DNA from: an uncultured Oscillospiraceae bacterium
GTDB taxonomy: Bacteria > Bacillota > Clostridia > Oscillospirales > Oscillospiraceae
Direction of reading: 5' to 3'
Assembly: GCA_964515275.1 (NCBI GenBank)
Contig: CAZESU010000002.1
Span: 1-52,643 of the forward strand
DNA: 52,643 nt
Under the pieces are notes generated by a model. The model searched no databases. It worked only from the letters and a program-made list of their open reading frames with translations, and had not been told where the DNA came from. Made by a program: the position numbers and the translations under genes. Below are positions 2,950 through 49,734 of the stretch, one piece after another; the stretch's first letter is position 1, and every line of letters starts with the position of its first letter.

Positions 2950-3438
2950 TCACATTCCTTCTATCAGCCGGACGGTGATAACGCCGGCCTCTGCATCGGT
3001 TGACAGTATAAATTCAGGCACAGCCGGGATCAGGTGTTCCGTCCCGCCTTTTACCACATACACATTGGAAGCGGGAGTCTCCATCACATCCGTGAGCTTT
3101 CCGATCTCCGTGCCGCTCTCGTCCACCACGGAGGCGCCGATGATATCCTGCAGGAAAAAGGCTCCCTCGGGAAGTTTTGCATCTTGCCGGTGGATAGAGA
3201 CGGCCCTGCCCTTCAGGCGCATGGCGGCGTTCACGTCCTCCACGCCCACCAGCTTTGCAATGACAAAGCTCTTGTGTACCCGGGCGGACAGCACCTTAAC
3301 TTCCTTCTCCTCTATAAAATATCGCTTGAAGCCCTTCATGAACTGGGGGCTGTCCAGCCAGACCTCAATCTTCACCTCGCCGGCAATACCATGGGTGTTC
3401 ACGATGCGCCCGGCCTCAATATACGGTTTCTTTTCCAT
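2950..3438 (-). CDS. rimM: 16S rRNA processing protein RimM
   Basis: The track ORF runs to 3552, but the internal start MEKKPYIEAGRIVNTHGIAGEVKIE (ATG 3436-3438) has a GGAGGTG RBS and gives a typical ~162-aa RimM with a PRC barrel. Confidence 0.9.
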   Translation of the reverse strand: MEKKPYIEAGRIVNTHGIAGEVKIEVWLDSPQFMKGFKRYFIEEKEVKVLSARVHKSFVIAKLVGVEDVNAAMRLKGRAVSIHRQDAKLPEGAFFLQDIIGASVVDESGTEIGKLTDVMETPASNVYVVKGGTEHLIPAVPEFILSTDAEAGVITVRLIEGM

Positions 3439-4506: not shown

Positions 4507-5361
4507 TTACGCCGCTTTTGCCTCGTCGGGGATTACAATCTCCCCAACCTGATCAAACTGGGACATCACGGCGCTGACAGTGACCTGCGCAATATCCAGC
4601 TCCACCTCTATGCCGTCGGCTCCTATGGAGGCCAGGGTCTGGCTGATCATCTCCTCCGCCATGGACTGCATGATCTCCGTCATGTCCATGTCGTAGCGGA
4701 CCACCATGCCGCTCTTGTCATCAATCCAGATGGAGCAGGGAATGCTGCCCAGATCGGAAAAGGCGGATTCATCGATCTCCGTGCCCATGCTCTGGCTGAG
4801 AATCTCCCAGGTGCCGGATATATCCATGGCAGCCTGAACGCTTTCGCCGGATATCTCGCCGTCATAGCGGGTAGCAGCGGAGCCGTTTATCTCCTCCTTG
4901 CCCACTTCCTGGAAGCTCTCGGCGCACTCGATGAAGATCTGTATATTCTCTCCCATTTTTTCACTCTGGACAGGCAGATCCTCGGCGGTCACGGTTTTCT
5001 TCTCCCAGGTGGTTCCGCCGTCAGCCGAAGCATAGGATATATACTCCTCCCCGTCTTTCTCGAAATAGCCCAGAACCTGCTGGTTCATGCCCATTGCATT
5101 CAGGGTCATGTCCATTTTGCAGCGCATAGGATCGCTTTGGGCATCCATCGCGCTCTGCATCGCTATATCCATGTCAACGCTCTGTCCCAGCAGGGCCATG
5201 GACATGGAGATCTGCATGTCAAGATCCACATGGTAGGTCTGCAGGCTGCTCATCTTTTTGGCGGCCTTTGCCATTCTGGTCTCAAAGGAGCCGCAGCCGA
5301 CCAGGCACAGGACCAGAGCCGCCAGCAGGGCAATGGCCAGAATTCTTTTTCCTTTCTTCAT
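4507..5361 (-). CDS. Putative lipoprotein, function unknown
   Basis: 284 aa. Signal peptide with lipobox MKKGKRILAIALLAALVLCLVGC|GS. GGGAGGA RBS. Confidence 0.8.
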   Translation of the reverse strand: MKKGKRILAIALLAALVLCLVGCGSFETRMAKAAKKMSSLQTYHVDLDMQISMSMALLGQSVDMDIAMQSAMDAQSDPMRCKMDMTLNAMGMNQQVLGYFEKDGEEYISYASADGGTTWEKKTVTAEDLPVQSEKMGENIQIFIECAESFQEVGKEEINGSAATRYDGEISGESVQAAMDISGTWEILSQSMGTEIDESAFSDLGSIPCSIWIDDKSGMVVRYDMDMTEIMQSMAEEMISQTLASIGADGIEVELDIAQVTVSAVMSQFDQVGEIVIPDEAKAA

Positions 5362-7754: not shown

Positions 7755-8016
7755 GGTTCCGCCCTCCTGTCAAGTGATTTACCTTTGCAGAGTATACAAC
7801 CATATGCCGCCGCTGTCAAGTATTTTTTCTTGTCAGCACAGATTATTTTGCATCAAACGGTTTCCGCATATAAATGCAAAGCATGGGAAAAATGTAAATA
7901 CCATCATTGGACAGTGGGAAATATGCCTGACAGCGGCTCACTCAGGCGCTTTGCCGACCGCCGAAAACCGTGTTTCCCCTTGTCCACGGATGGTAAACCT
8001 CAAACAGGAGGAAAGC

Positions 8017-11000
8017 ATGGATAACCACAGTTTGTCATATATAAGCGATGAAAAATTAGCCGCCTTTGCGGCCTCGGAGGCAAGGCTTCTGCGCCCGGAC
8101 GGTACTGGCTCTGCCCGGCACTGCACGGAGCTGATGAAACGGAGCTTTTCCCTGATACAGCGTACCCACGAGGTCATATCCCGCCGCTACGGTGGCCAGC
8201 CCTCCGTGCCTGCCGCCTGTGAATGGCTGCTGGACAACTGGTACATGGTGCAGCGGGAATACCGTTTTGCCCGCTCGGGGCTGGCTTGTGCGCGGTGCCT
8301 CCGGCTCTGCGGTGACCTGCCCCTGATTTTCGAGCTGTGCCGCGCTCTGCTGCATGCCGGACAGGGAGCCGTGGACGAGGAGCGCTGCGCGCTGTTTCTT
8401 CAGGGCTTTCAGACCGTGACGGTGCTGCGGCGAAGTGAGCTGCTGCTGTTCCCTGCCGCCCTGCGCGCCGCCATAACGGAGGGCATTGCCCAGGTATGCA
8501 GCAATATGCAGTACGCCTCCGACACCGGAGAGTACGCAAAGGAGCTGGAGGCTCTTTTCGGCACTCTTCGGCTCTTCTCCGTGCTGGACACAGAAAAGCT
8601 GATCTCCCAGTCGGATGTGACCGAGGCCATTCTCTCCAAAGACCCCACCGGCGACTATCCCAACATGGACAGCGGCACCAAGCAGGACTATCTGGCCCGG
8701 CTTGAGAAGCTGGCCCGGTCTCAGGGGCTGGAGGAGCATGTGCTGGCCCGCCGTTTTATCAAGCAGGCGGAAGAGGATCGGCGGCATGTGGGCTTTTATC
8801 TCTTTGACCGGAGCAAAGGCCGGGGTGCCGGGCTTTACATCGGCGCGAATATCCTCCTCACCCTGTTTCTGAGTCTGCTGCTGTCCTTTGCCGTGGGCAG
8901 TCCCGCAGCGGCACTGCTTTTGCTGCTGCCGGTATCGGAGCTGGTAAAGAGCCTGCTGGATTTTCTTCTGCTCCAGTTTGTTCCGTCAAGACGCCTGCCC
9001 AGAATGGACACGGAAAAGGGCGTGCCCCCGGAGGGCAGAACCATCTGCGTTCTCTCCGCCCTGCTGACCTGCCCGGACAGTGGCACACGCCTTGCCTCCC
9101 GGCTGGAGGAATTTCGCCTTTCCAACCGCAGTGCCGGGAAAAACCTGTGCTTCGGTATTCTGGCGGATCTGCCCGCCGCGGATGCGCCCGAGGTCGAGGG
9201 AGACGAAAGAATCCTCCGCGCTGCCCGCACAGCCATCAATGAGCTGAATATCAAATACGGCGGCGGCTTTTACCTTTTCACCAGAGAGCGCAGCTTTGAC
9301 GGAGAGCGCTACACCGGAAACGAGCGAAAGCGCGGCGCACTGCTGGAGTTGAGCAAGCTGCTGTGCGACAGAGAATCCGCCCTTCAGGTCACCGGAGACA
9401 GGGACGCGCTGGTGGGGGTGCGGTATATCATCACGCTGGACAGCGACACCCGCATGTATCCCGGCGCGGCCTCAGAGCTGATCGGTGCCATGCTCCATCC
9501 CCTGTGCACCCCCAAAGTGGACCCCCAGCGCCATATCGTGACCGAGGGCCATGCCCTGATCCACCCCAGAATGAGCACCGAGCTTCAAAGCGCGACCTAC
9601 ACCGATTTTGCCCTGATTTTCGCCGGTGCCGGGGGCAGCGATCCCTACGGCGCATTGTGTGGCGAGCTGTATATGGACGCCTTCAAAAGCGGCGGCTTTG
9701 CCGGCAAGGGGATTTTGGACGCAAAGGTGCTGCTCCAGTGCAGCGAGGCCCACTTCCCTGCCGGCTGCATCTTGTCCCACGATGCGCTGGAGGGAGCCTA
9801 TCTCCACGGAGCCTTTATGGGCGATACGGAATTTTCCGATAGCTTCCCCTCAAAGCCCCTGTCCTACTACAAGCGCCTCCACCGCTGGGTTCGGGGCGAC
9901 TGGCAGAATGCCCCCTGGATTTTCCGCAGCGGCAAAGACCTGACGGATATCGACCGCTGGCGGCTGCTGGACAGCCTTCGCCGCAGTCTGATCCCGCCTG
10001 CCACTCTTCTTGCCATACTGGCGGGCTTCTTTCTGCCGGTAACGGGGCTCACTCTTGCGGCCTGGGCGGCGCTGCTGGCCCTTTTGAGCAGGCTCTTCCT
10101 CTCCTTTGCAGAGGGCGGGCGCAGGAAACACGAGCGTGTGCCCCTGCGCCGCTACACCAGACTGCTGACCGGCGTGGGCGGCGCCATCGTACAGACCTTT
10201 ATGCGTCTGTGGCTGCTGCCTTTTGAGGCGTGGATCTGTCTCTCTGCCGCCGTTACCGCCCTGTGGCGGATGCTGAAAAGCCGCAAGAAGCTGCTGGAAT
10301 GGGAGACTGCCGCCCAGAGCGACAGCAAGACCGGCGGGCTGACCGCCTATGGAAAGGCCATGTGGTTCCCCATGCTGATCGGCGCGCTGTGCCTGCTGCT
10401 CTCCCCGGTCATCATCGGCAGATCCTCGGGACTCATGTGGCTTTTGTCCCCGGCGGCAGCGGCGGCGCTGGCTTTGCCCGCTCACCGGGAATACGCCCTC
10501 AGCCGGGCGGACAGGGATTACCTGAAAAACCGGGTGCTAAAGACTTGGCGCTATCTGCGGGAGTTCTCGGGGAAAGAGGACAACTACCTGCCCCCGGATA
10601 ATTTTCAGGAGCAGCCGCCCATAGGAGCTGCCCACCGCACTTCGCCCACCAATATTGGCCTTGCGACAGCCTCTGCCGTGGCGGCGATGGACATGGAGCT
10701 GATTCCGGCTCGGGAGGCCGTGGAATATATCGACCGCATGGCGGACACATTGCTGCGCATGCCCCGATGTCTGGGCCACTACTACAACTGGTATGACACC
10801 CGTACCCTCCTGCCCCTGCACCCGGCCTTTGTCTCCACTGTGGACAGCGGCAACCTGTATGCGGGGCTTCTGGTGGCGGCAGATGCCATGGAAGAGCTGG
10901 GGCAGCGGGAGCTTTCCGCAAAGCTTCAAAATATCATGGAGCCCATGGACTTTTCGCCCCTGTACGATGCGGGCAGGGGGCTTTTCTATATCTGCTACGA

Positions 11001-14000
11001 TGCCGCCAAAGAGCGGGGTGCCGGCGGCTGGTACGACCTGATGGCGAGCGAGGCCATGCTGACAAGCTACATCGCCATTGCCAAGGGGGATGTGCCCAAA
11101 AAGCACTGGCGCAGGCTGAGCCGGGCTCAGCTCCAGAAGGACGGCTACCGGGGCCTTGCCAGCTGGACGGGCACCATGTTTGAATACCTGATGCCGGAGC
11201 TGTTTCTGCCCCTGTACCGGGGCAGTCTTCTGTACGAGAGCAGCCGTTTCTGCCTTTACGCCCAGAAGCGCCGGGTTTTTGCGGGCAAGCCCTGGGGCAT
11301 TTCGGAGAGCGCCTTTTTCTCTCTGGACAACAGCCTCAACTACCGCTACAAGGCTCACGGCTGCCCCGCCCTGGCTCTGAAACGGGGGCAGGAGGACGAC
11401 ATGGTGGTCTCTCCGTACAGCAGCTTTCTGGCCCTGTGCGTGGAGCCCGAAAGCGCCGTCAGAAATCTGCATCGGCTGGAGCGTTTCGGCGCTCTGGGCC
11501 GCTACGGCTTTATTGAGGCGCTGGACTTTACGCCGGGCCGCTGCCGCAGTGACAGCGGAGAACCGGTGCGCTGCTATATGGCCCACCACGCGGGCATGAG
11601 TATTCTGGCAGCGGCAAACGCGGTAAATGAGGGCTGTGTTCAGCGGCGGTTTATGTCCAACCCTGCCATGTCCGCCCACTGCGCCATGCTGCAGGAGCGG
11701 CTGCCGGAGAACGGCATCGTCATCCGCCGGGACCTGTCCCCTGTGCCGGAAAAGCCGGATCGGGCTGCGCCCTGCCGCTGGCAGAAGCGGGGCGGGCAGG
11801 AGAACAGCGGCAGCTGTGTCCTGTCAAACGGAGCCTACGAGATGCTTCTTGACTCGCAGGCTCAGGGCCGGGCCAAATTCGGAGGCCGCCTTATCTATAT
11901 GGAAGCCCCCGAATTCCGGCTGGACCGGCAGAAGCTCTTCCCCTCAAAGGCAGAGCAGTGGGAGTTTTCCGAGGACAAGTGCAGCTATCGGCAGAGCCTT
12001 GAAGGGCTGGAATGTGAGCTGACGGTGTCCGCCGCCTCAGGAGACTGCGGGGAACTCCGCAGTCTGCAGCTTCGCTCCATGGGCGACAGAAGCCTGCGTC
12101 TGCGCTTTTCCTTTGTGCCGCTGCTGGCGGCTTATAAAGATTATGTAAACCATCCCGCCTTCTGGCGACTGGGCATTTGGGCGGTGGCGGAGGAGAGCTG
12201 CCTGTATCTGCGCCGGGTACGCCGGGGCGGCAGAGGTGAGATGTGGCTTTGTCTTGCCTGCGACAGGCGGGCGGCGTTTTCCGCCGATAAAAGGGGTAGT
12301 CTCGGCTGGCTTTCTCAGCCGGAGGTAACGGCGTCCGTTGCTCTGACCCTTGAGGGCGGAGAGCTGACTGCCGTGCGCTTTGCCCTCTGCGCCGCCTTTA
12401 CCCGAAAGGAGGCCCGAGACGGCGCAGCCAGGATACTGGCCGCCTCGGAGCTGGAGTGTGGCAGCATGGTCAGCGCCTCCGCCACGCTGCTGGGGCTCAG
12501 CGCCGGAGAGATCGGCGCCGCCATGGACATGCTGCCCTACCTGCAAAGGCCTCAGCTTTATCAGGCGGAGCCTGCAAGGGATTTGTGGCAGTACGGCATC
12601 TCCGGCGACCTGCCCATTATCTGCTGTGAAAGCGGGGCAAAGGAGGCGGAGAGCCTGCTCATGCGCTTCTGCCTGCTGAAAAGCTGCGGCGTGTCCGCAG
12701 ATCTTGTGTATCTCAGCGACGAGCAGGGCGAATATCAGCGGCCCTTTTTCCGCCGCATCAGCCAGATGCTGACCCGCTATTCCCTTGAGGCGCTGATCGA
12801 CAGCCTCGGCGGCGTACACTTCGTGCCGCTGAACGCAAAAGACCTGATTCTCAGCCGCTCCGCTTACGCCGTAGGCCACGAGCGCGAGACATGCCCGGAG
12901 GCTCCCGCGCCGGTATTCGGCGGTCCCAGAGAGCAGGGCGCCGTCCCCGAATACCAGCATACAGGCAGAGCTTTTGAATATGATGTAGACCAAAATCTCC
13001 CTGCAAAGCCCTGGCAGCTTATCCTGACCAACGGACGCTTCGGCTATATTGCCGCAGACTGCGGCAGCGGCAGCATGTGGTTTGAAAACGCACGGGAGAT
13101 GCGCATCAACGCCCCTGCCCCGCTGCCGGAGGAGATTGCCGGCAGCGAGGCGCTGTGGCTTGAGACGGAGTGGGGCCGCATCAGCCTCTTTGCCGCAAAC
13201 GACGGTCATCCCTGCACCGTCAGCTTCTCGCCTGGCCTTGCGGTCTGGGAAAAGGAAGTGGTCGGCAGGCGCATCAAGACCAGCGCCTTTATTCCCAGCG
13301 GCATGGATGCCAGAGTGTTGATTATCGAGGGCGCCGATGACATGAATCTTTACTGGTCGCTCCGACTGGTGCTGGGAGCGGCAGACGGCAGCGCGGTGCT
13401 GTGCCGCAGTGAAAATGAACTGTTTCGGGCAGAGAACCCGGAGAGCTATCTGCCCGGCACGGTATTCCGCGCCGGCTGCTCCTCCTCCGCGCTGATCCGA
13501 TGCGACTATGCTCCCGCCGCCATGTTCATGCGCTGCACCTGCCAGCACATTACGGTACTGGTCTGCGGCTGCTGCGATGAGGCGGAGATGAAGGAGCTTT
13601 GCCGCCCCAGCCTTGCCCTTGCGGCGCTGGGCGCTGCCACCTCCCGTTGGGCAGCCTTGCTGGACAGGCTGGAGGTGCACACAGACCAGCGGGCCCTGGA
13701 CGCCTATATGAACGGCTGGGCGGCTTATCAGACCATCGCCTGCCGTCTGGAGGGCCGGTGCAGCCTGTACCAGAGCGGCGGCGCACTGGGCTTCCGGGAT
13801 CAGCTGCAGGACGCGCTGAACGTGCTGCTGCTGACGCCGGATTACGCCCGGGTGCAGATTCTCGCCTGCTGCCGCCACCAGTATGTAGAGGGGGATGTGA
13901 TGCACTGGTGGCATCCTCACCCGAACGGCGACAAGGGCGTGCGTACCCGCTGCTCCGACGATCTGCTTTGGCTCACCTGGGCGCTGTGCCGCTATGTGGA

Positions 14001-15054
14001 GGCCACCGGAGACGAAGACATCTGCTTCCGGGAAGAAAATTATGTAAACTCACCTGTCCTGTCCGCCGTGGAGCGTGACCGCTACGAGTGCCCGGAGAGA
14101 TCCGATATGAGCGCCTCGGTGCTGGACCACGCCAAGGCCTCACTGGAGCGATGCATTGCCAGAGGCTTCGGCAGTCACGGTCTGCCATACTTCGGCAGCG
14201 GCGACTGGAACGACGGTCTGGACGAGGTGGAGGGCGAGAGTGTGTGGCTGGGCTGGTTTTTCTCCTGTTGTGCAGCCATGTTTGCCGGGCTGCTTGAGCG
14301 CCTGGGCCGCCCCGGTGCGGAGCGCTACCGGACCTTTTCTCAGCAGGCGGCAGCCGCGGCGGAGGCCAGCTTCAACGGGCGCTGGTATCAGCGGGGAATG
14401 GCGGAAAGCGGCGAGCCCTTGGGCGGCGGGGAACGGATCGACTCCATTGCCCAGAGCTGGGCCGCCCTGTGCGAAAGCAGTGAAAACGAGCATGTGGATA
14501 CCGCCCTTGAAAATGTATTATGTAAACTTGTTGACCGTAAGAACCGACTGGTCAGGCTCTTTGATCCGCCCTTCTCGCCGGATGAACCCTATCAGGGCTA
14601 TATCTCCAGCTACGGGGAGGGCTTCCGGGAAAACGGCGGACAGTACACCCACGGGGCCATCTGGCTGGCCATGGCCTGTTTTCGCCGGGGGCGAAGCGAT
14701 GCGGGCTTTGAGATATTGAACCTGCTGCTGCCGGAGAATCACGATCTGAGCGTATACGGCGGCGAGCCCTTTGTACTCTCGGCGGACGTATACGCCGCCC
14801 CGGGACATGAGGGAGAGGCGGGCTGGACCTGGTACACCGGCTCCTCCGGCTGGTACTTCCGGGTAGTGGCCGAGGAGATGCTGGGTCTGAGACTCCGGGA
14901 TGGGAAGCTGTATATCAGTCCCAACCTGCCTGCTGCCATTGACGGCTACACCGCCCTTTGGACGGATTTCTCCGAAACGCCTCACCGCATTGAGGTGAAA
15001 GGGGAAGAAATCACCGTGGACGGGGAGAAATATTTCGGTCAGGGTCTTGGTTAA
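8017..15054 (+). CDS. Cyclic beta-1,2-glucan synthase-like multidomain protein (GT84-like glycosyltransferase, TM segments, glucoamylase-like barrel, C-terminal GH94 phosphorylase-like domain)
   Basis: 2345 aa from the ATG at 8017 (AGGAGGAAAGC RBS; the track start 7774 runs through the promoter region). GT motifs IITLDSDTRMYPG, ILSHDALEGAYL and RWVRGDWQN. Hydrophobic blocks before and after the GT domain. Central TSPTNIGL, YNWYDTRTL, VSTVDSGNL and FEYLMPELFLP. C-terminal GH94-like FRDQLQDALN, HWWHP...GVRTRCSDDLLWL and GSGDWNDGL. Confidence 0.85.
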   Translation: MDNHSLSYISDEKLAAFAASEARLLRPDGTGSARHCTELMKRSFSLIQRTHEVISRRYGGQPSVPAACEWLLDNWYMVQREYRFARSGLACARCLRLCGDLPLIFELCRALLHAGQGAVDEERCALFLQGFQTVTVLRRSELLLFPAALRAAITEGIAQVCSNMQYASDTGEYAKELEALFGTLRLFSVLDTEKLISQSDVTEAILSKDPTGDYPNMDSGTKQDYLARLEKLARSQGLEEHVLARRFIKQAEEDRRHVGFYLFDRSKGRGAGLYIGANILLTLFLSLLLSFAVGSPAAALLLLLPVSELVKSLLDFLLLQFVPSRRLPRMDTEKGVPPEGRTICVLSALLTCPDSGTRLASRLEEFRLSNRSAGKNLCFGILADLPAADAPEVEGDERILRAARTAINELNIKYGGGFYLFTRERSFDGERYTGNERKRGALLELSKLLCDRESALQVTGDRDALVGVRYIITLDSDTRMYPGAASELIGAMLHPLCTPKVDPQRHIVTEGHALIHPRMSTELQSATYTDFALIFAGAGGSDPYGALCGELYMDAFKSGGFAGKGILDAKVLLQCSEAHFPAGCILSHDALEGAYLHGAFMGDTEFSDSFPSKPLSYYKRLHRWVRGDWQNAPWIFRSGKDLTDIDRWRLLDSLRRSLIPPATLLAILAGFFLPVTGLTLAAWAALLALLSRLFLSFAEGGRRKHERVPLRRYTRLLTGVGGAIVQTFMRLWLLPFEAWICLSAAVTALWRMLKSRKKLLEWETAAQSDSKTGGLTAYGKAMWFPMLIGALCLLLSPVIIGRSSGLMWLLSPAAAAALALPAHREYALSRADRDYLKNRVLKTWRYLREFSGKEDNYLPPDNFQEQPPIGAAHRTSPTNIGLATASAVAAMDMELIPAREAVEYIDRMADTLLRMPRCLGHYYNWYDTRTLLPLHPAFVSTVDSGNLYAGLLVAADAMEELGQRELSAKLQNIMEPMDFSPLYDAGRGLFYICYDAAKERGAGGWYDLMASEAMLTSYIAIAKGDVPKKHWRRLSRAQLQKDGYRGLASWTGTMFEYLMPELFLPLYRGSLLYESSRFCLYAQKRRVFAGKPWGISESAFFSLDNSLNYRYKAHGCPALALKRGQEDDMVVSPYSSFLALCVEPESAVRNLHRLERFGALGRYGFIEALDFTPGRCRSDSGEPVRCYMAHHAGMSILAAANAVNEGCVQRRFMSNPAMSAHCAMLQERLPENGIVIRRDLSPVPEKPDRAAPCRWQKRGGQENSGSCVLSNGAYEMLLDSQAQGRAKFGGRLIYMEAPEFRLDRQKLFPSKAEQWEFSEDKCSYRQSLEGLECELTVSAASGDCGELRSLQLRSMGDRSLRLRFSFVPLLAAYKDYVNHPAFWRLGIWAVAEESCLYLRRVRRGGRGEMWLCLACDRRAAFSADKRGSLGWLSQPEVTASVALTLEGGELTAVRFALCAAFTRKEARDGAARILAASELECGSMVSASATLLGLSAGEIGAAMDMLPYLQRPQLYQAEPARDLWQYGISGDLPIICCESGAKEAESLLMRFCLLKSCGVSADLVYLSDEQGEYQRPFFRRISQMLTRYSLEALIDSLGGVHFVPLNAKDLILSRSAYAVGHERETCPEAPAPVFGGPREQGAVPEYQHTGRAFEYDVDQNLPAKPWQLILTNGRFGYIAADCGSGSMWFENAREMRINAPAPLPEEIAGSEALWLETEWGRISLFAANDGHPCTVSFSPGLAVWEKEVVGRRIKTSAFIPSGMDARVLIIEGADDMNLYWSLRLVLGAADGSAVLCRSENELFRAENPESYLPGTVFRAGCSSSALIRCDYAPAAMFMRCTCQHITVLVCGCCDEAEMKELCRPSLALAALGAATSRWAALLDRLEVHTDQRALDAYMNGWAAYQTIACRLEGRCSLYQSGGALGFRDQLQDALNVLLLTPDYARVQILACCRHQYVEGDVMHWWHPHPNGDKGVRTRCSDDLLWLTWALCRYVEATGDEDICFREENYVNSPVLSAVERDRYECPERSDMSASVLDHAKASLERCIARGFGSHGLPYFGSGDWNDGLDEVEGESVWLGWFFSCCAAMFAGLLERLGRPGAERYRTFSQQAAAAAEASFNGRWYQRGMAESGEPLGGGERIDSIAQSWAALCESSENEHVDTALENVLCKLVDRKNRLVRLFDPPFSPDEPYQGYISSYGEGFRENGGQYTHGAIWLAMACFRRGRSDAGFEILNLLLPENHDLSVYGGEPFVLSADVYAAPGHEGEAGWTWYTGSSGWYFRVVAEEMLGLRLRDGKLYISPNLPAAIDGYTALWTDFSETPHRIEVKGEEITVDGEKYFGQGLG

Positions 15055-22858: not shown

Positions 22859-23501
22859 CTATCCCGCCACCGGCGGGCGGCCGGCGGCGGCGAATACCTC
22901 ATCTACGTTGAAAAACAACTCGTTCAAGATGTCCCTGTAATAGGTCATGGAGTAGCCGCCGATCTCCATGCGGGACAAGAGGGCATAGTCCGGGTTGATC
23001 TCGTTATACACCCTTCTGTCCACAGTGCAGTAGATCTCATACTAAAACTTATTAAAATGGTTAAAAACCGTTTTATAGTGCGAAGCGCGTTAAGTTTTTA
23101 TGAGACGTAAATTGTGCCTACGGCACAATTTGAGCGTGCACAGCACGTGGGATTTTTGATTAAACTTTTTAATCAAAAATCAGTATCAAAGCCCGCGTCG
23201 GGAATACACTGCAGGGTGGGCTGCTGCACCCGGTAGCCAAGGGGAGCAATGAAGAGTCTGATCTTCCCGATACAGGGCTTCACATGATCCACCCATTTAT
23301 TGATGTCATAGCTGATCTTCTCTACCGTACAGCCGGAATTATAACCGCCCATGGGGGTAAGCTTATCCGTGAAGATCCGCTCCGGCTAGACAATCAGGCT
23401 GTGGAAAAAGATGTGGCGCACATCCCCCGTATAGCCCAAGGCTGTCCATCTCCGCATGGATGGTGGCACACGCCGCCATGCGCAAGACGCAGCTTTTTCA
23501 T
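22859..23501 (-). pseudogene. Disrupted ORF (possibly polysaccharide-deacetylase-like): in-frame TAG plus a MITE insertion
   Basis: Reverse frame reads ...GYTGDVRHIFFHSLIV*PERIFTDKLTPMGGYNSGCTVEKISYDINKWVDHVKPCIGKIRLFIAPLGYRVQQPTLQCIPDAGF [146-bp repeat] EIYCTVDRRVYNEINPDYALLSRMEIGGYSMTYYRDILNELFFNVDEVFAAAGRPPVAG*. The function call rests only on the HIFFHSLIV.PE..F motif. Confidence 0.6.
23040..23185 (+). mobile_element. MITE-like repeat, copy A (146 bp), flanked by TCA/TCA
   Basis: TACTAAAACTTATTAAAATGGTTAAAAACCGTTTTATAGTGCGAAGCGCGTTAAG...GATTTTTGATTAAACTTTTTAATCAAAAATCAGTA. Flanking TCA at 23037-23039 and 23186-23188. AT-rich against GC-rich surroundings. Confidence 0.85.
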
Positions 23502-34261: not shown

Positions 34262-34906
34262 ATGACACGGGGCGGAGGCCGAAACCGGGATCAGGTGGAA
34301 TTCACAAGTTTGGATGAATTGGTGCCGGAAGATCATTTGGTGAGGAAACTGGAGAACGCCATAGATTGGAGCTTTCTCTATGAAATGGTGGAGGAGAGCT
34401 ATTGCGAAGATAACGGACGCCCGAGCCTCGACCCGGTGATCCTGATCAAATTGCCGGTGGTGCAGTATATGTTTGGGATTCGAAGCATACGGCAGACGAT
34501 TCAGGAAATTAAGGTGAACAATGCATAGCGATGGTTTCTGGGCATAGGGCTGCGTGATCCCGTGCCGCATTTCAGCACCTTTGGGAAGAATTACAGCAGG
34601 AGATTCAAGGATACAGATTTGTTTGAACGAATCTTTCAGAAGATATTAAGCGAGTGCATGAAGGCAGGCCTGGTGGATGGATCCGTAGTATTTGTGGATT
34701 CGACTCACGTAAAGGCACGAGCCAACAGCAGGAAGTATACAGACGAACTGGCCGAGGAACAGAGCCTGTGGTATGAGAAAGAACTACGGGCAGAGATCGA
34801 CCGGGATCGGGAAGCGCAAGGGAAGAAGCCGCTGAAGGATAAGGAAAGCTCCGTTAGGCAATTCCTTTTTCATAAAACCAAACGGTTTTATAAAAAACAG
34901 TATTAA
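34262..34906 (+). pseudogene. IS1182-family transposase, N-terminal ~195 codons only, with an in-frame TAG
   Basis: LVPEDHLVRKLENAIDWSFLYEMVEESYCEDNGRPSLDPVILIKLPVVQYMFGIRSIRQTIQEIKVNNA*RWFLGIGLRDPVPHFSTFGKNYSRRF...VFVDSTHVKARAN matches the conserved DUF772/IS1182 N-terminus. The TAG at 34526-34528 replaces the conserved Tyr of AYRWFLG. The catalytic DDE half is missing. Confidence 0.85.
34841..34902 (+). repeat. Partial repeat (module M of the MITE family), copy F
   Basis: AAGGAAAGCTCCGTTAGGCAATTCCTTTTTCATAAAACCAAACGGTTTTATAAAAAACAGTA followed by TTA. Near-identical to 46116-46176 and 43340-43389. Confidence 0.75.
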
Positions 34907-39247: not shown

Positions 39248-39393
39248 TACTAAAACTTATGAAAACGGTTAAAAACCGTTTTATAGCGCGAAGCGCGTTA
39301 AGTTTTTATGAGACGTAAATTGTGCCTACGGCACAATTTGAGCGTGCACAGCACGCGGGATTCCTGATTAAACTTTTTAATCAGGAATCAGTA
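39248..39393 (+). mobile_element. MITE-like repeat, copy B (146 bp), flanked by TTA/TTA
   Basis: TACTAAAACTTATGAAAACGGTTAAAAACCGTTTTATAGCGCGAAGCGCGTTAAGTTTTTATGAGACGTAAATTGTGCCTACGGCACAATTTGAGCGTGCACAGCACGCGGGATTCCTGATTAAACTTTTTAATCAGGAATCAGTA. TTA at 39245-39247 and 39394-39396. Confidence 0.85.
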
Positions 39394-39410
39394 TTAACAG
39401 AGAGAGCAAA

Positions 39411-39745
39411 ATGAAGAACGATTACCTTATTGAAAAACCTCCCCCTGCCGGCTCTGCTGGTATTTTCGCTGCCTATAATCATGGCAACCTGTTCCAGCAG
39501 CTGTATACCACGGCGGATTCCGCTATCATAGGTCGCTATGTGGGTGAGCAGACTCTTGCCGCCGTGGGCGCGTCAAACGCGCTCACCATGGCGTTTATCT
39601 GCGTTGCCATCGGAGGCGGTACCGGCGCATCGTGATGGTGATCCGTCACTTCGGTGCAAAGGAATACGGCAAAATGCGTCTTGCGGCAACCGCCGCAGCA
39701 AGTGGCTCGATATGCTTGCCGGATCAAGCCGCAAAAAACGAATAA
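39411..39745 (+). pseudogene. MATE-family efflux transporter remnant (first ~100 codons, multiply frameshifted, then truncated)
   Basis: GNLFQQLYTTADSAIIGRYVGEQTLAAVGASNALTMAF...GGGTGAS is the MATE N-terminal signature. The preceding TITLLKNLPLPALLVFSLPIIM and following VMVIRHFGAKEYGKMRLA segments lie in other frames. No further MATE sequence before the terminator. Confidence 0.75.
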
Positions 39746-42694: not shown

Positions 42695-42696
42695 AA

Positions 42697-42915
42697 TCAG
42701 AAATATATCTCGCAGTCGCTCTCTACCTTTTTGCAGGCCTTAAGTACATTCTGCATAACAGCCTTTATGTCCGCATTCTCGTCAAACTCCACTGCCATCT
42801 TGAGTGCCATGAAATTTACTGCCGCGTCCTTCACGCCGTCGATTTTTTTCGCCGCCTGCTCCATCTTGTCGGCGCAGACAGGGCAATCCACCTCGATCTT
42901 ATAAGTCTTTTTCAT
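42697..42915 (-). CDS. Stand-alone heavy-metal-associated (HMA) domain protein
   Basis: 72 aa. YKIEVDCPVCADKMEQAAKKIDGVKDAAVNF has the CxxC ferredoxin-like HMA fold. Its stop is 2 nt from the ATPase ATG. Confidence 0.8.
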   Translation of the reverse strand: MKKTYKIEVDCPVCADKMEQAAKKIDGVKDAAVNFMALKMAVEFDENADIKAVMQNVLKACKKVESDCEIYF

Positions 42916-42940
42916 GCCATCTTTCCTCCAAATTTTCTTT

Positions 42941-42972
42941 CATATGAACAATCGTTCATTTGTTCAATTGTT
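42941..42972. promoter_or_regulatory. Candidate ArsR/SmtB operator (TGAACA-N-TGTTCA-type inverted repeats)
   Basis: CATATGAACAATCGTTCATTTGTTCAATTGTT lies just upstream of the HMA gene. ATGAACAATCGTTCAT is an imperfect palindrome resembling CzrA/CadC-type operators as I recall them. Confidence 0.45.
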
Positions 42973-43300
42973 ATTATACTACCCTTTCTCTATATGTCAA
43001 GCGTTTTTTATTGCCCATCTCAAATAACCGTAATATAATTTATATATAGCTTTCCGGGTCGGAAGCTTCATACCGGTAAAGGAACAGGGCAGGCTGGGTT
43101 TGAAAAGAATGTCGCTTGCGGGCACCGGCGGTCAGTGCCTGATGTGTCCGCCGGAGCTTCGGGACGGGAAAATGCCCTATGCGCTTTATGCTCCGGGCGG
43201 TTCGCTGATGAACCCGATCGTATGAGCAGCGTTTTAATGAGGCGGATACTTTGATGGTAGAAATTCTCCATGGCAAAAATGCCGTACTTGGATTATATAA

Positions 43301-43389
43301 TACTGATTCTTGATTAAATTTTTTAATCAGGAATCAGTATTAGGCGGTTCCTTTTCTATAAAACCAAACGTTTTTATGAAAAAACAGTA
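43301..43389 (+). repeat. Composite partial repeat, copy E: 39-bp palindromic mini-element plus module M
   Basis: TACTGATTCTTGATTAAATTTTTTAATCAGGAATCAGTA (43301-43339), then TTAGGCGGTTCCTTTTCTATAAAACCAAACGTTTTTATGAAAAAACAGTA, followed by TGAGAG. Confidence 0.75.
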
Positions 43390-43525
43390 TGAGAGGGAAT
43401 TGCTGCAAATTGCAGAAAATGCCTGCTGCAACCGGCGGTTGACAAATAGAACAGCCGGCTTTCTGGCCTGCAACAGCCAATTATGGTAGTCTTTGTTCAG
43501 AATTTGAGGCAAAGGAGACGTTCAA

Positions 43526-46002: not shown

Positions 46003-46019
46003 TTTTCCTACACTCCTTA

Positions 46020-46260
46020 TACTAAAACTTATTAAAACGGTTGAAAACCTTTTTATAGCACCGCAGGTGCGTTATGAACTGTATGAGACGACTTATGCGG
46101 CAATCTTCCGCAAAAGGGAAGCGCCGTTAGGCGATTCCTTTTTCATAAAACCAAACGGTTTTATGAAAAACAGTATGAGACGTAAATTGTGCCTACGGCA
46201 CAATATGAGCATGCACTGCACGCGGGATTCTTGATTAAACTTATTAATCAAGAATCCGTA
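46020..46260 (+). mobile_element. MITE-like repeat, copy C (241-bp long variant with extra module M), flanked by TTA/TTA
   Basis: Same termini as A, B and D (TACTAAAACTTATTAAAACGG...AATCAAGAATCCGTA). A 95-bp additional segment lies between two copies of GTATGAGACG (46081-46090 and 46173-46182). TTA at 46017-46019 and 46261-46263. Confidence 0.85.
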
Positions 46261-46926
46261 TTAAAGCAGATTTTTCTTATACAGGATACGAGACACCGCC
46301 AGAGTAAACAGCACGCCTACAGGAACCATGATACCCACCGTACCCGAGTTCATGGCGGGGACAAAGATGAACAGGAGCAGCATCAGCGTCACGGGGGCAA
46401 TGGCGATCTTCCAGTTCTTTGAGATGAACACCACACCCAGACCGCCGAACAGGGCGGGCACGATCTGTGCGAAAGCCGGGGCCAGCACCGGGGAGTTCAG
46501 CACGGGAGTCAAGGGGGTTATCAGGATAACGCCCAAAATGATGATAACGGTCGTCACAATGCTGGACATGGCGATGGCGATGGTGGATACGATCTCTCCC
46601 TCCTCGGAGTTGATCTTTACGTCCGCCTGCTCAAGGGCGTTGAGCGCTACCGGCAACTTCAGGTTTGAGACATTGCCGGTTACAAAGGACAGATAGGAGC
46701 CGCCGGCGCCCAGCATCGGCACATAGGTAAAGGTTTCGATCACCGCAACTGCCCAGTACATGGGTGCCGTTGCGATGACGCCCATGAGAAAGCCGTGCCA
46801 GTCAGGCGGTGCCTGATATATGATGCCCACGCTTATGGGGTACATGAAAAGGATCACCATTACGGAGAGATTCCAGATTCGTCCCGCTCTGTGGACGGAA
46901 TCCATATAAGTAAGATTGTTTTTCAT
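46261..46926 (-). CDS. Polytopic membrane protein, function unknown
   Basis: 221 aa, about 6 TM. Its stop codon (TAA, reverse of 46261-46263) coincides with the flank triplet of MITE copy C. Confidence 0.65.
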   Translation of the reverse strand: MKNNLTYMDSVHRAGRIWNLSVMVILFMYPISVGIIYQAPPDWHGFLMGVIATAPMYWAVAVIETFTYVPMLGAGGSYLSFVTGNVSNLKLPVALNALEQADVKINSEEGEIVSTIAIAMSSIVTTVIIILGVILITPLTPVLNSPVLAPAFAQIVPALFGGLGVVFISKNWKIAIAPVTLMLLLFIFVPAMNSGTVGIMVPVGVLFTLAVSRILYKKNLL

Positions 46927-49458: not shown

Positions 49459-49495
49459 AAACCTTCCATCCTTTTTTTCATTGGGCACATTGTAA

Positions 49496-49641
49496 TACTG
49501 ATTCTTGATTAAAAAGTTTCATCAAGAATCCCGCGTGCTGTGCACGCTCAAATTGTGCCGTAGGCACAATTTACGTCTCATAAAAACATCACGCGCTTCG
49601 CGCTATAAAACGGTTTTTAACCGTTTTCATAAGTTTTAGTA
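49496..49641 (-). mobile_element. MITE-like repeat, copy D (146 bp, inverted orientation), flanked by TAA/TAA on the plus strand
   Basis: The reverse complement aligns end to end with copy B. TAA at 49493-49495 and 49642-49644. Confidence 0.85.
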
Positions 49642-49734
49642 TAACACAGCAAAAAGCAAAGCTCAATAAAATTACGTCTATCTTTTATCTCGATAACGTG
49701 TTACAATATGAAATCATTTACCGGAGCGTTTAAT

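Follow-up and report, generated by a model that had tools for sequence, protein, structure and literature searches.

A probable non-autonomous transposable element with TNA target-site duplications interrupts a decayed gene in an uncultured Oscillospiraceae bacterium

The open reading frame at 22.86-23.47 kb on the minus strand of the window (the whole 52,643-nt stretch of Oscillospiraceae DNA that was analysed) is broken by a 146-bp repeat, copy A, which occupies positions 23040-23185 on the plus strand. Copy A starts with TACTAAAAC and finishes with AATCAGTA on its top strand, has a GC content of 33.6% compared to 54.6% across the window, and is flanked by the same triplet on both sides, TCA at 23037-23039 on the left (TGA on the gene strand) and TCA at 23186-23188 on the right. 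The perfect terminal inverted repeat is only 4 bp long (TACT/AGTA), while an imperfect terminal inverted repeat of ~27 bp matches at ~19-21 of 27 positions with 1-3 gaps allowed. The 146 bp have no coding capacity, with stops in the translations of all six frames. A 19-codon micro-ORF (ATG...TGA) within the element was considered and rejected, as its ATG is missing in four of 21 copies and it has no Shine-Dalgarno sequence or ribosome-binding site.

On the minus strand, the reading frame upstream of copy A ends in ...MGGYNSGCTVEKISYDINKWVDHVKPCIGKIRLFIAPLGYRVQQPTLQCIPDAGF (...LQCIPDAGF), followed by TGA and then by the element, where the frame reads ...GFDTDF and terminates at a stop codon 7 bases into the insert. 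Past the second TGA, a different minus-strand frame picks up with EIYCTVDRRVYNEINPDYALLSRMEIGG... and runs as EIYCTVDRRVYNEINPDYALLSRMEIGGYSMTYYRDILNELFFNVDEVFAAAGRPPVAG to a stop codon at 22859-22861. The middle fragment of the gene (23189-23343, minus strand; YNSGCTVEKISYDINKW...LQCIPDAGF) is homologous to residues 134-185 of the protein P0001, and the 3´ fragment (22859-23036, minus strand; EIYCTVDRRVYNE...RPPVAG and then the stop) to residues 186-244. Together with the duplicated triplet, copy A adds 149 bases, which is not a multiple of three. As the initial annotation had stated, cutting out the element alone, with one triplet or with both triplets gives an in-frame junction in every case (146, 149 and 152 all leave a remainder of two when divided by three). 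With copy A and one TCA removed, the joined flanks read ...DAGFEIYCTVD...; this is the only version that aligns without a gap to all seven homologues spanning the site, given that retention of both triplets leaves an extra residue (GFDEIY) and retention of neither leaves the product one residue short (GLIY).

These homologues were found by searching with the joined fragments, which returned eight proteins with a best identity of no more than 82%, seven of them spanning the insertion site. All seven are uninterrupted there, with the pattern [AL]GF-x-[IV]YCTVD. The closest, P0001, is encoded on L001, a 7-kb contig in synteny with the window: the CotF, 57-aa ORF and small membrane protein genes lie upstream, and nucleotide identity to the window is 79% on each side of copy A. 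Its junction sequence is GAC GCG GGC TTT GAA ATT TAC, with one TGA (TCA on the plus strand of the window), while a more distant orthologue (L002) reads TTT CAG, such that the triplet is not conserved at greater distance. The expectations of the initial annotation that intact orthologues would have the two halves contiguous and a single TCA at the junction are thus borne out, the former in every homologue and the latter in the nearest orthologous DNA. Within the species, no allele lacking copy A was found: exact-protein look-ups with both neighbouring genes gave only one other sample (SRR10165008), 99.98-100% identical to the window, in which the contig ends 67 bases inside the element and the site is therefore occupied. 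Copy A is a clean insertion with a 3-bp duplication.

The interrupted gene carries other lesions as well. An N-terminal remnant of the ancestral gene (23332-23469, minus strand) reads ..YTGDVRHIFFHSLIV-stop-PERIFTDKLTPMGGYNSG, and the in-frame TAG at 23386-23388, noted in the initial annotation, is real and replaces a conserved Tyr, with both orthologous contigs reading HIFFHSLIVYPE at this position. These two contigs retain the ancestral layout, in which an N-terminal ORF (...YTGDVAHIFFHSLIVYPEMVF...GGYNAGF...) is followed by the ORF for P0001 or P0002. In the window, by comparison, ...YTGDVRHIFFHSLIV-stop-PERIFTDKLTPMGGYNSG is directly fused to CTVEKISYDINKW..., reflecting the in-frame internal loss of ~0.5 kb between two short motifs that resemble each other (junction at 23332-23343). 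The region deleted is the one in which the homologues have their VDD and HSYTH motifs, and the N-terminal ~80-100 residues are also missing from the window gene. Judging from these sequence differences, the ORF is dead independently of copy A, whichever lesion came first. The earlier description of a dead gene was correct, with the internal deletion and the N-terminal loss now added to the TAG, and pseudogene is the appropriate annotation for the ORF at 22.86-23.47 kb. Since the gene is also wrecked by the nonsense codon, the internal deletion and the loss of its N terminus, we infer that the insertion of copy A was selectively neutral. The joined fragment had no match in Pfam or NCBIfam searches. 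P0001 matched Polysacc_deac_1 below threshold (20.3 bits compared to a cut-off of 23.1), and for this reason the name polysaccharide-deacetylase-like is given to the gene only tentatively.

The window contains four full copies of the repeat (A, B, C and D) plus fragments within 52.6 kb, where none are expected by chance, and copies A, B and D are 93.8-96.6% identical to one another. Copy B (39248-39393, plus strand) has TTA/TTA flanks and lies in a divergent intergenic region. The ORF immediately after it (39410-39640) resembles, by eye, the N terminus of a MATE-type efflux protein (MKNDYLIEKPP...LFQQLYTTADSAIIGRYVGEQTLAAVGASNAL...), ends at ~75 residues and may be another gene remnant. Copy C (46020-46260, plus strand), also with TTA/TTA flanks, is a composite with an extra module of ~95 bp joined at GTATGAGACG; its right TTA doubles as the stop codon (TAA) of a 221-aa gene, beyond which lies an M20 peptidase gene. 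We noted that the duplication at copy C (46017-46263 with the flanks) regenerates this stop together with the ribosome-binding context (TAA-GGAG) of the M20 peptidase gene downstream. Copy D (49496-49641, minus strand), again with TTA/TTA flanks, lies between divergent methyltransferase genes. With its flanks (49493-49644) it splits an apparent extended -10 promoter box, for which relatives read TGCTACAAT, and TTACAAT is retained beside the methyltransferase gene after the insertion.

Partial and modular relatives were found at two further positions. At 43301-43389 (plus strand), a solo 39-bp terminal hairpin (TACTGATTC...GAATCAGTA) is followed by a second hairpin module ending in CAGTA-TGA, and at 34841-34899 (plus strand) there is a fragment of this second module ending in CAGTA-TTA. 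The solo 39-bp unit resembles two terminal repeats placed back to back and is a near-perfect palindrome, TAA/TTA flanks included. The second module, with its CAGTA-TNA end, is also the extra insert of copy C, and the modules meet at GTATGAGACG. Comparison of 42695-43525 with positions 10127-10571 of a related contig (L125) indicated that relatives carry a copZ-like HMA gene and a promoter between the HTH regulator and P-type ATPase genes, while in the window the copZ-like gene is absent and the repeat modules occupy its place. Owing to the divergence between the window and its relatives in this region, no clean empty site could be drawn for the 43.3-kb solo hairpin.

Empty sites were also found for two of the other full copies. 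For copy C, 11 orthologous loci in Candidatus Limivicinus-like relatives (82-84% nucleotide identity) have the 221-aa and M20 peptidase genes separated by 12 bases and read ...TTG TAA GGAGTAAAGGATATG or ...TTG TGA GGAGCGAGGAATATG, to be compared with ...CTT TAA GGAGTGTAGGAAAAATG for the window stripped of copy C and one triplet. For copy D, the empty site in two related contigs that are likewise Candidatus Limivicinus-like (L125 and L126) is GCTGTG CTA CAATGTGCCC, corresponding to GCTGTG TTA-element-TTA CAATGTGCCC in the window. For both C and D the flanks match on either side. Copies A, C and D, three of the window's four full copies, thus each have a precise orthologous site with a single triplet.

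Using a degenerate pattern of the right-end hairpin, we detected the terminal hairpin at 49 loci in ~20 genomes, comprising Oscillospiraceae MAGs, Oscillibacter, Pseudoflavonifractor and Brotocaccenecus. The loci often lie at contig ends, as is typical of repeats that break assemblies, and the genes neighbouring the copies are unrelated to one another. The orientation of the element relative to adjacent genes, assessed with a crude heuristic based on GC3-filtered ORFs, shows no bias (25 compared to 18). Within one MAG (CAMFZO01) the copies differ by only 1-3 bases, and this sequence similarity suggests a recent burst there. An exact 28-mer of the central hairpin had no matches among GTDB representative genomes (which do not include the species of the window), and no family match was found in plasmid and phage collections. 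Among viral contigs there is one true member, L054, with the other matches being chance hits to AT-rich phages; this IMG/VR contig (4053 bp, 65% GC) apparently holds a copy nested in a copy at an internal GTC-TCA-TAC. Terminal hairpins lying outside a MITE were sought in metagenomes with no matches, and the 40 loci from a scan for the terminal repeat only were MITE variants, short related units or chance matches. We also observed, at 3003-3026 of another locus (L013), a 24-bp fragment of the left end of the element that abuts the end of a gene resembling, by eye, one for a HAD-type hydrolase and provides its last codons and stop (...LENYILNRFHKF-stop).

For the copies with both ends available in the window and in Oscillospiraceae genomes, the flanking triplets are identical, and always TNA, in 24 of 26 cases (23 matches scored by script, with L011 added by eye); the other two differ by one or two bases. 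All four middle bases are represented among the duplicated triplets (TTA 13, TCA 7, TGA 2 and TAA 2). When the right flanks were permuted in 200,000 shuffles, at most 18 matches were obtained compared to the 23 scored (p < 5e-6). The initial annotation had proposed a 3-bp TCA duplication, and while the duplication stands, the target is TNA generally, with TCA being just one allele. Because the triplets are direct rather than inverted (TTA...TTA, not TTA...TAA), they do not simply continue the terminal inverted repeat outwards. Reconstruction of the target gave a weak palindrome, YY-TNA-RA, which is only weakly defined beyond the TNA. There is also an asymmetry with respect to orientation, in that the middle base is a pyrimidine on the top strand of the element in 20 of the 24 copies. 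Five or six copies adjoin a long convergent ORF whose stop codon serves as the right triplet, and regeneration of the stop codon may explain why insertions at such sites are tolerated.

In the consensus fold obtained from an alignment of 21 copies, 51 pairs are distributed over seven helices. The termini pair with each other in a closing helix of 4 bp, and the remaining six helices are a stem, the two hairpins enclosed by it, two separate hairpins and the terminal hairpin. Of the cells in these helices, 99.1% are paired. Double-sided changes were found at 16 of the 51 pairs, compared to 8.6 +/- 1.3 in shuffles, and at no more than three pairs when the partners were slid by 1-3 columns. Copy A alone takes the consensus fold (z = -8.4 for DNA and -6.2 for RNA). 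An unpaired ATGAGACG in the centre is invariant, and the composite copies (copy C and the nested viral copy) are joined at ATGAGACG. Where pairs are not Watson-Crick, the cells are more often G.T on the top strand (11) than on the bottom strand (2), a skew in favour of the top strand that is only suggestive because several of these cells were inherited together. We also noted three private C to T changes in copy A (23058, 23079 and 23148), all in a top-strand CpG context and each converting a G-C pair of a helix to G.T, as well as two fully compensated pair differences between the terminal hairpins of copies A and B (TT/AA compared to CC/GG). Rfam 15 gave nothing at the gathering score across the whole window, with only chance-level matches to copy B (E of at least 0.48).

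Given the fixed 3-bp duplication, the loosely palindromic target, the imperfect terminal repeats, the lack of coding capacity and the many copies, copy A is very probably a non-autonomous transposable element (MITE) of a family spread in Oscillospiraceae-type gut Clostridia. A transposase supplied in trans would make 3-base staggered cuts at a TNA target, which for copy A would be the TGA formed by the TTT-GAG codons of the polysaccharide-deacetylase-like gene. The TACT...AGTA ends of the element would then be joined to the target and gap repair would duplicate the triplet, with the resulting 149 additional bases and stop codons breaking the frame. Duplication of TNA or TWA is a hallmark of part of the IS5 superfamily. 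From the TNA duplication alone, we infer that the mobiliser is one of the DDE transposases that duplicate TNA (IS5 superfamily: IS1031/IS427/ISL2, related to PIF/Harbinger). IS1237/ISLxx6 of the IS5 family duplicate TTA/TAA (PMC2516522), and PIF/Harbinger and NuwaII duplicate TWA and C-TNA-G (PMC4482050). No autonomous partner or transposase emerged from searches of genomes, metagenomes, viral contigs, plasmids and phages. Across ~0.8 Mb of collected loci there was no matching pair of ends 0.3-4 kb apart, and an all-against-all BLAST of these loci revealed no long shared repeats. The one candidate examined from the terminal-repeat scan (L059) had no transposase.

The conserved secondary structure, with its covariation, could also be that of a regulatory or structured-RNA motif native to its loci, with the ancestral segment deleted in other genomes, and the frequent position of the element next to gene starts or stop codons would fit such a motif. 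Copy A, however, interrupts a coding frame that is contiguous in all homologues; the neighbouring genes are unrelated, the orientation is unbiased and there is no Rfam match. Above all, three independent orthologous sites lack the element precisely, with one triplet each, and because of these empty sites we consider a non-mobile motif to be effectively excluded. This is in agreement with the initial annotation, which had regarded the repeat as mobile rather than as a conserved regulatory motif, and the dispersal of the family with matching 3-bp flanks points the same way. 

Two other routes of mobility take the TNA to be something different from a duplication. Transposition of a single strand by an HUH/Y1 enzyme (in a palindrome-associated element derived from IS200/IS605, or in the manner of REP/RAYT) would involve recognition of the hairpins and would make TNA the cleavage motif. 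It would account for an element that is essentially a string of hairpins, for the maintenance of six helices through compensatory changes, for non-Watson-Crick cells that favour one strand and for a 39-bp hairpin unit that exists alone. Elements of the IS200/IS605 type, on the other hand, make no target duplication and insert 3´ of a fixed short motif, with a fixed cleavage motif at the right end, whereas here the right triplet varies with the left (TTA, TCA, TGA and TAA), including among near-identical copies in the same genome. Together with the single triplet at three empty sites and the presence of imperfect terminal inverted repeats, this makes single-strand transposition very unlikely. 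Still more improbable is a site-specific or IS110-like recombinase exchanging strands within a 3-bp core, with TNA as the shared crossover core. Such cores also look like short direct repeats flanking an insert, and the structured non-coding body is reminiscent of RNA-guided recombinase elements. Recombination of this kind nevertheless requires identical donor and target cores, while a single genome can hold near-identical copies at TTA, at TCA and at TAA; moreover, no recombinase is associated with any copy and the target beyond TNA is weakly defined.

The reading of copy A as a MITE moved by a DDE transposase does not by itself account for the fold, in that compensatory conservation of the hairpins is not required by plain DDE cut-and-paste. 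Given the near-complete pairing, the 16 doubly changed pairs and the invariant ATGAGACG, selection may conceivably act on the six helices in a folded single strand, preferentially the top one, which would make the family a mobile structured-RNA gene of gut Oscillospiraceae or point to transposition dependent on hairpins or single-stranded DNA despite the TNA duplications, though we regard this as rather doubtful. Alternatively, hairpin-templated repair (template switching in quasi-palindromes) could mimic compensatory changes without selection. If it is due to selection, the compensatory conservation of the hairpins is the sole feature of wider interest.

Among the bacterial MITEs, the Correia/NEMIS, RUP, ERIC and bcr1 families duplicate TA or TTTAT, and a conserved fold with compensatory changes has been reported for bcr1. 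These repeats (Correia/NEMIS of Neisseria, RUP of pneumococcus, ERIC, and bcr1 of the Bacillus cereus group) are dispersed, non-coding and 100-200 bp long, AT-rich, with terminal inverted repeats, a short fixed target duplication and stable folds, and are intergenic or occasionally inside genes (PMC10969869). The window element shares with them its small size, AT-richness, lack of coding capacity, dispersal, duplication and stable fold. It differs in duplicating TNA rather than TA or TTTAT, in its short, imperfect terminal repeat and in a modular body of five local hairpins plus an enclosing stem, compared to one long hairpin. The 3-bp TNA/TWA duplication is shared with the IS1031/IS427/ISL2 groups of IS5 and with PIF/Harbinger and their Tourist-type MITEs, and in some IS5/PIF groups the extended target is likewise palindromic (C-TNA-G). 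In contrast to the IS5 groups, no transposase gene was found with the window family, and its ends, TACTAAAAC and TACTGATTC, are unlike the repeat of IS1237, the sole member compared (GAGGTGGTTTCAGTAGTCG; GAGGTGGTTTCAG...), beginning with TACT... instead of the GAG/GG-type ends of elements such as IS1237. Rickettsia palindromic elements (RPE) preserve the reading frame on insertion and end up as translated segments of a functional protein. Like them, the window element is a small palindromic mobile repeat within an open reading frame, but copy A adds 149 bases and an early stop, and its host gene is dead. With IS200/IS605 or REP/RAYT it has in common the conserved subterminal hairpins, kept here by compensatory changes, while differing in that the left and right triplets co-vary through four middle bases. 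In the searchable literature, neither sequence nor taxon terms led to a matching sequence or description, and the repeat family appears to be undescribed. The insertion of copy A is an ordinary transposon footprint and the element works like known bacterial MITEs.

The repeats at 23.0, 39.2, 46.0 and 49.5 kb are accordingly to be treated as mobile DNA and not as regulatory motifs, and they define a TNA-targeting MITE family in gut Oscillospiraceae, which are abundant but poorly studied. Short-read assemblies are broken up by the family, with many contigs ending within the element. Its insertions often fall exactly on stop codons or promoters, which are regenerated (copies C and D), and constitute a set of dated markers for strain typing. 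Other repeats were seen outside the window. Among contigs encoding an identical 221-aa protein (L095-L103, ~4616-5130), the spacer that separates the M20 peptidase gene from the HTH gene measures 156, 287 or 515 bp. It is occupied by different palindromic repeats of high GC content (e.g. GCTCCCCTTTCAGGGGAGC; GTCATCCTGAGCGCAGCGAAGGATCCC...), which represent further families with presence/absence variation within a species. Finally, a 2426-aa ORF at 7774-15054 of the window has GH94 catalytic, GH94 supersandwich and glucoamylase-like domains, and would correspond to a very large glycan phosphorylase or glucan-synthase-like protein.
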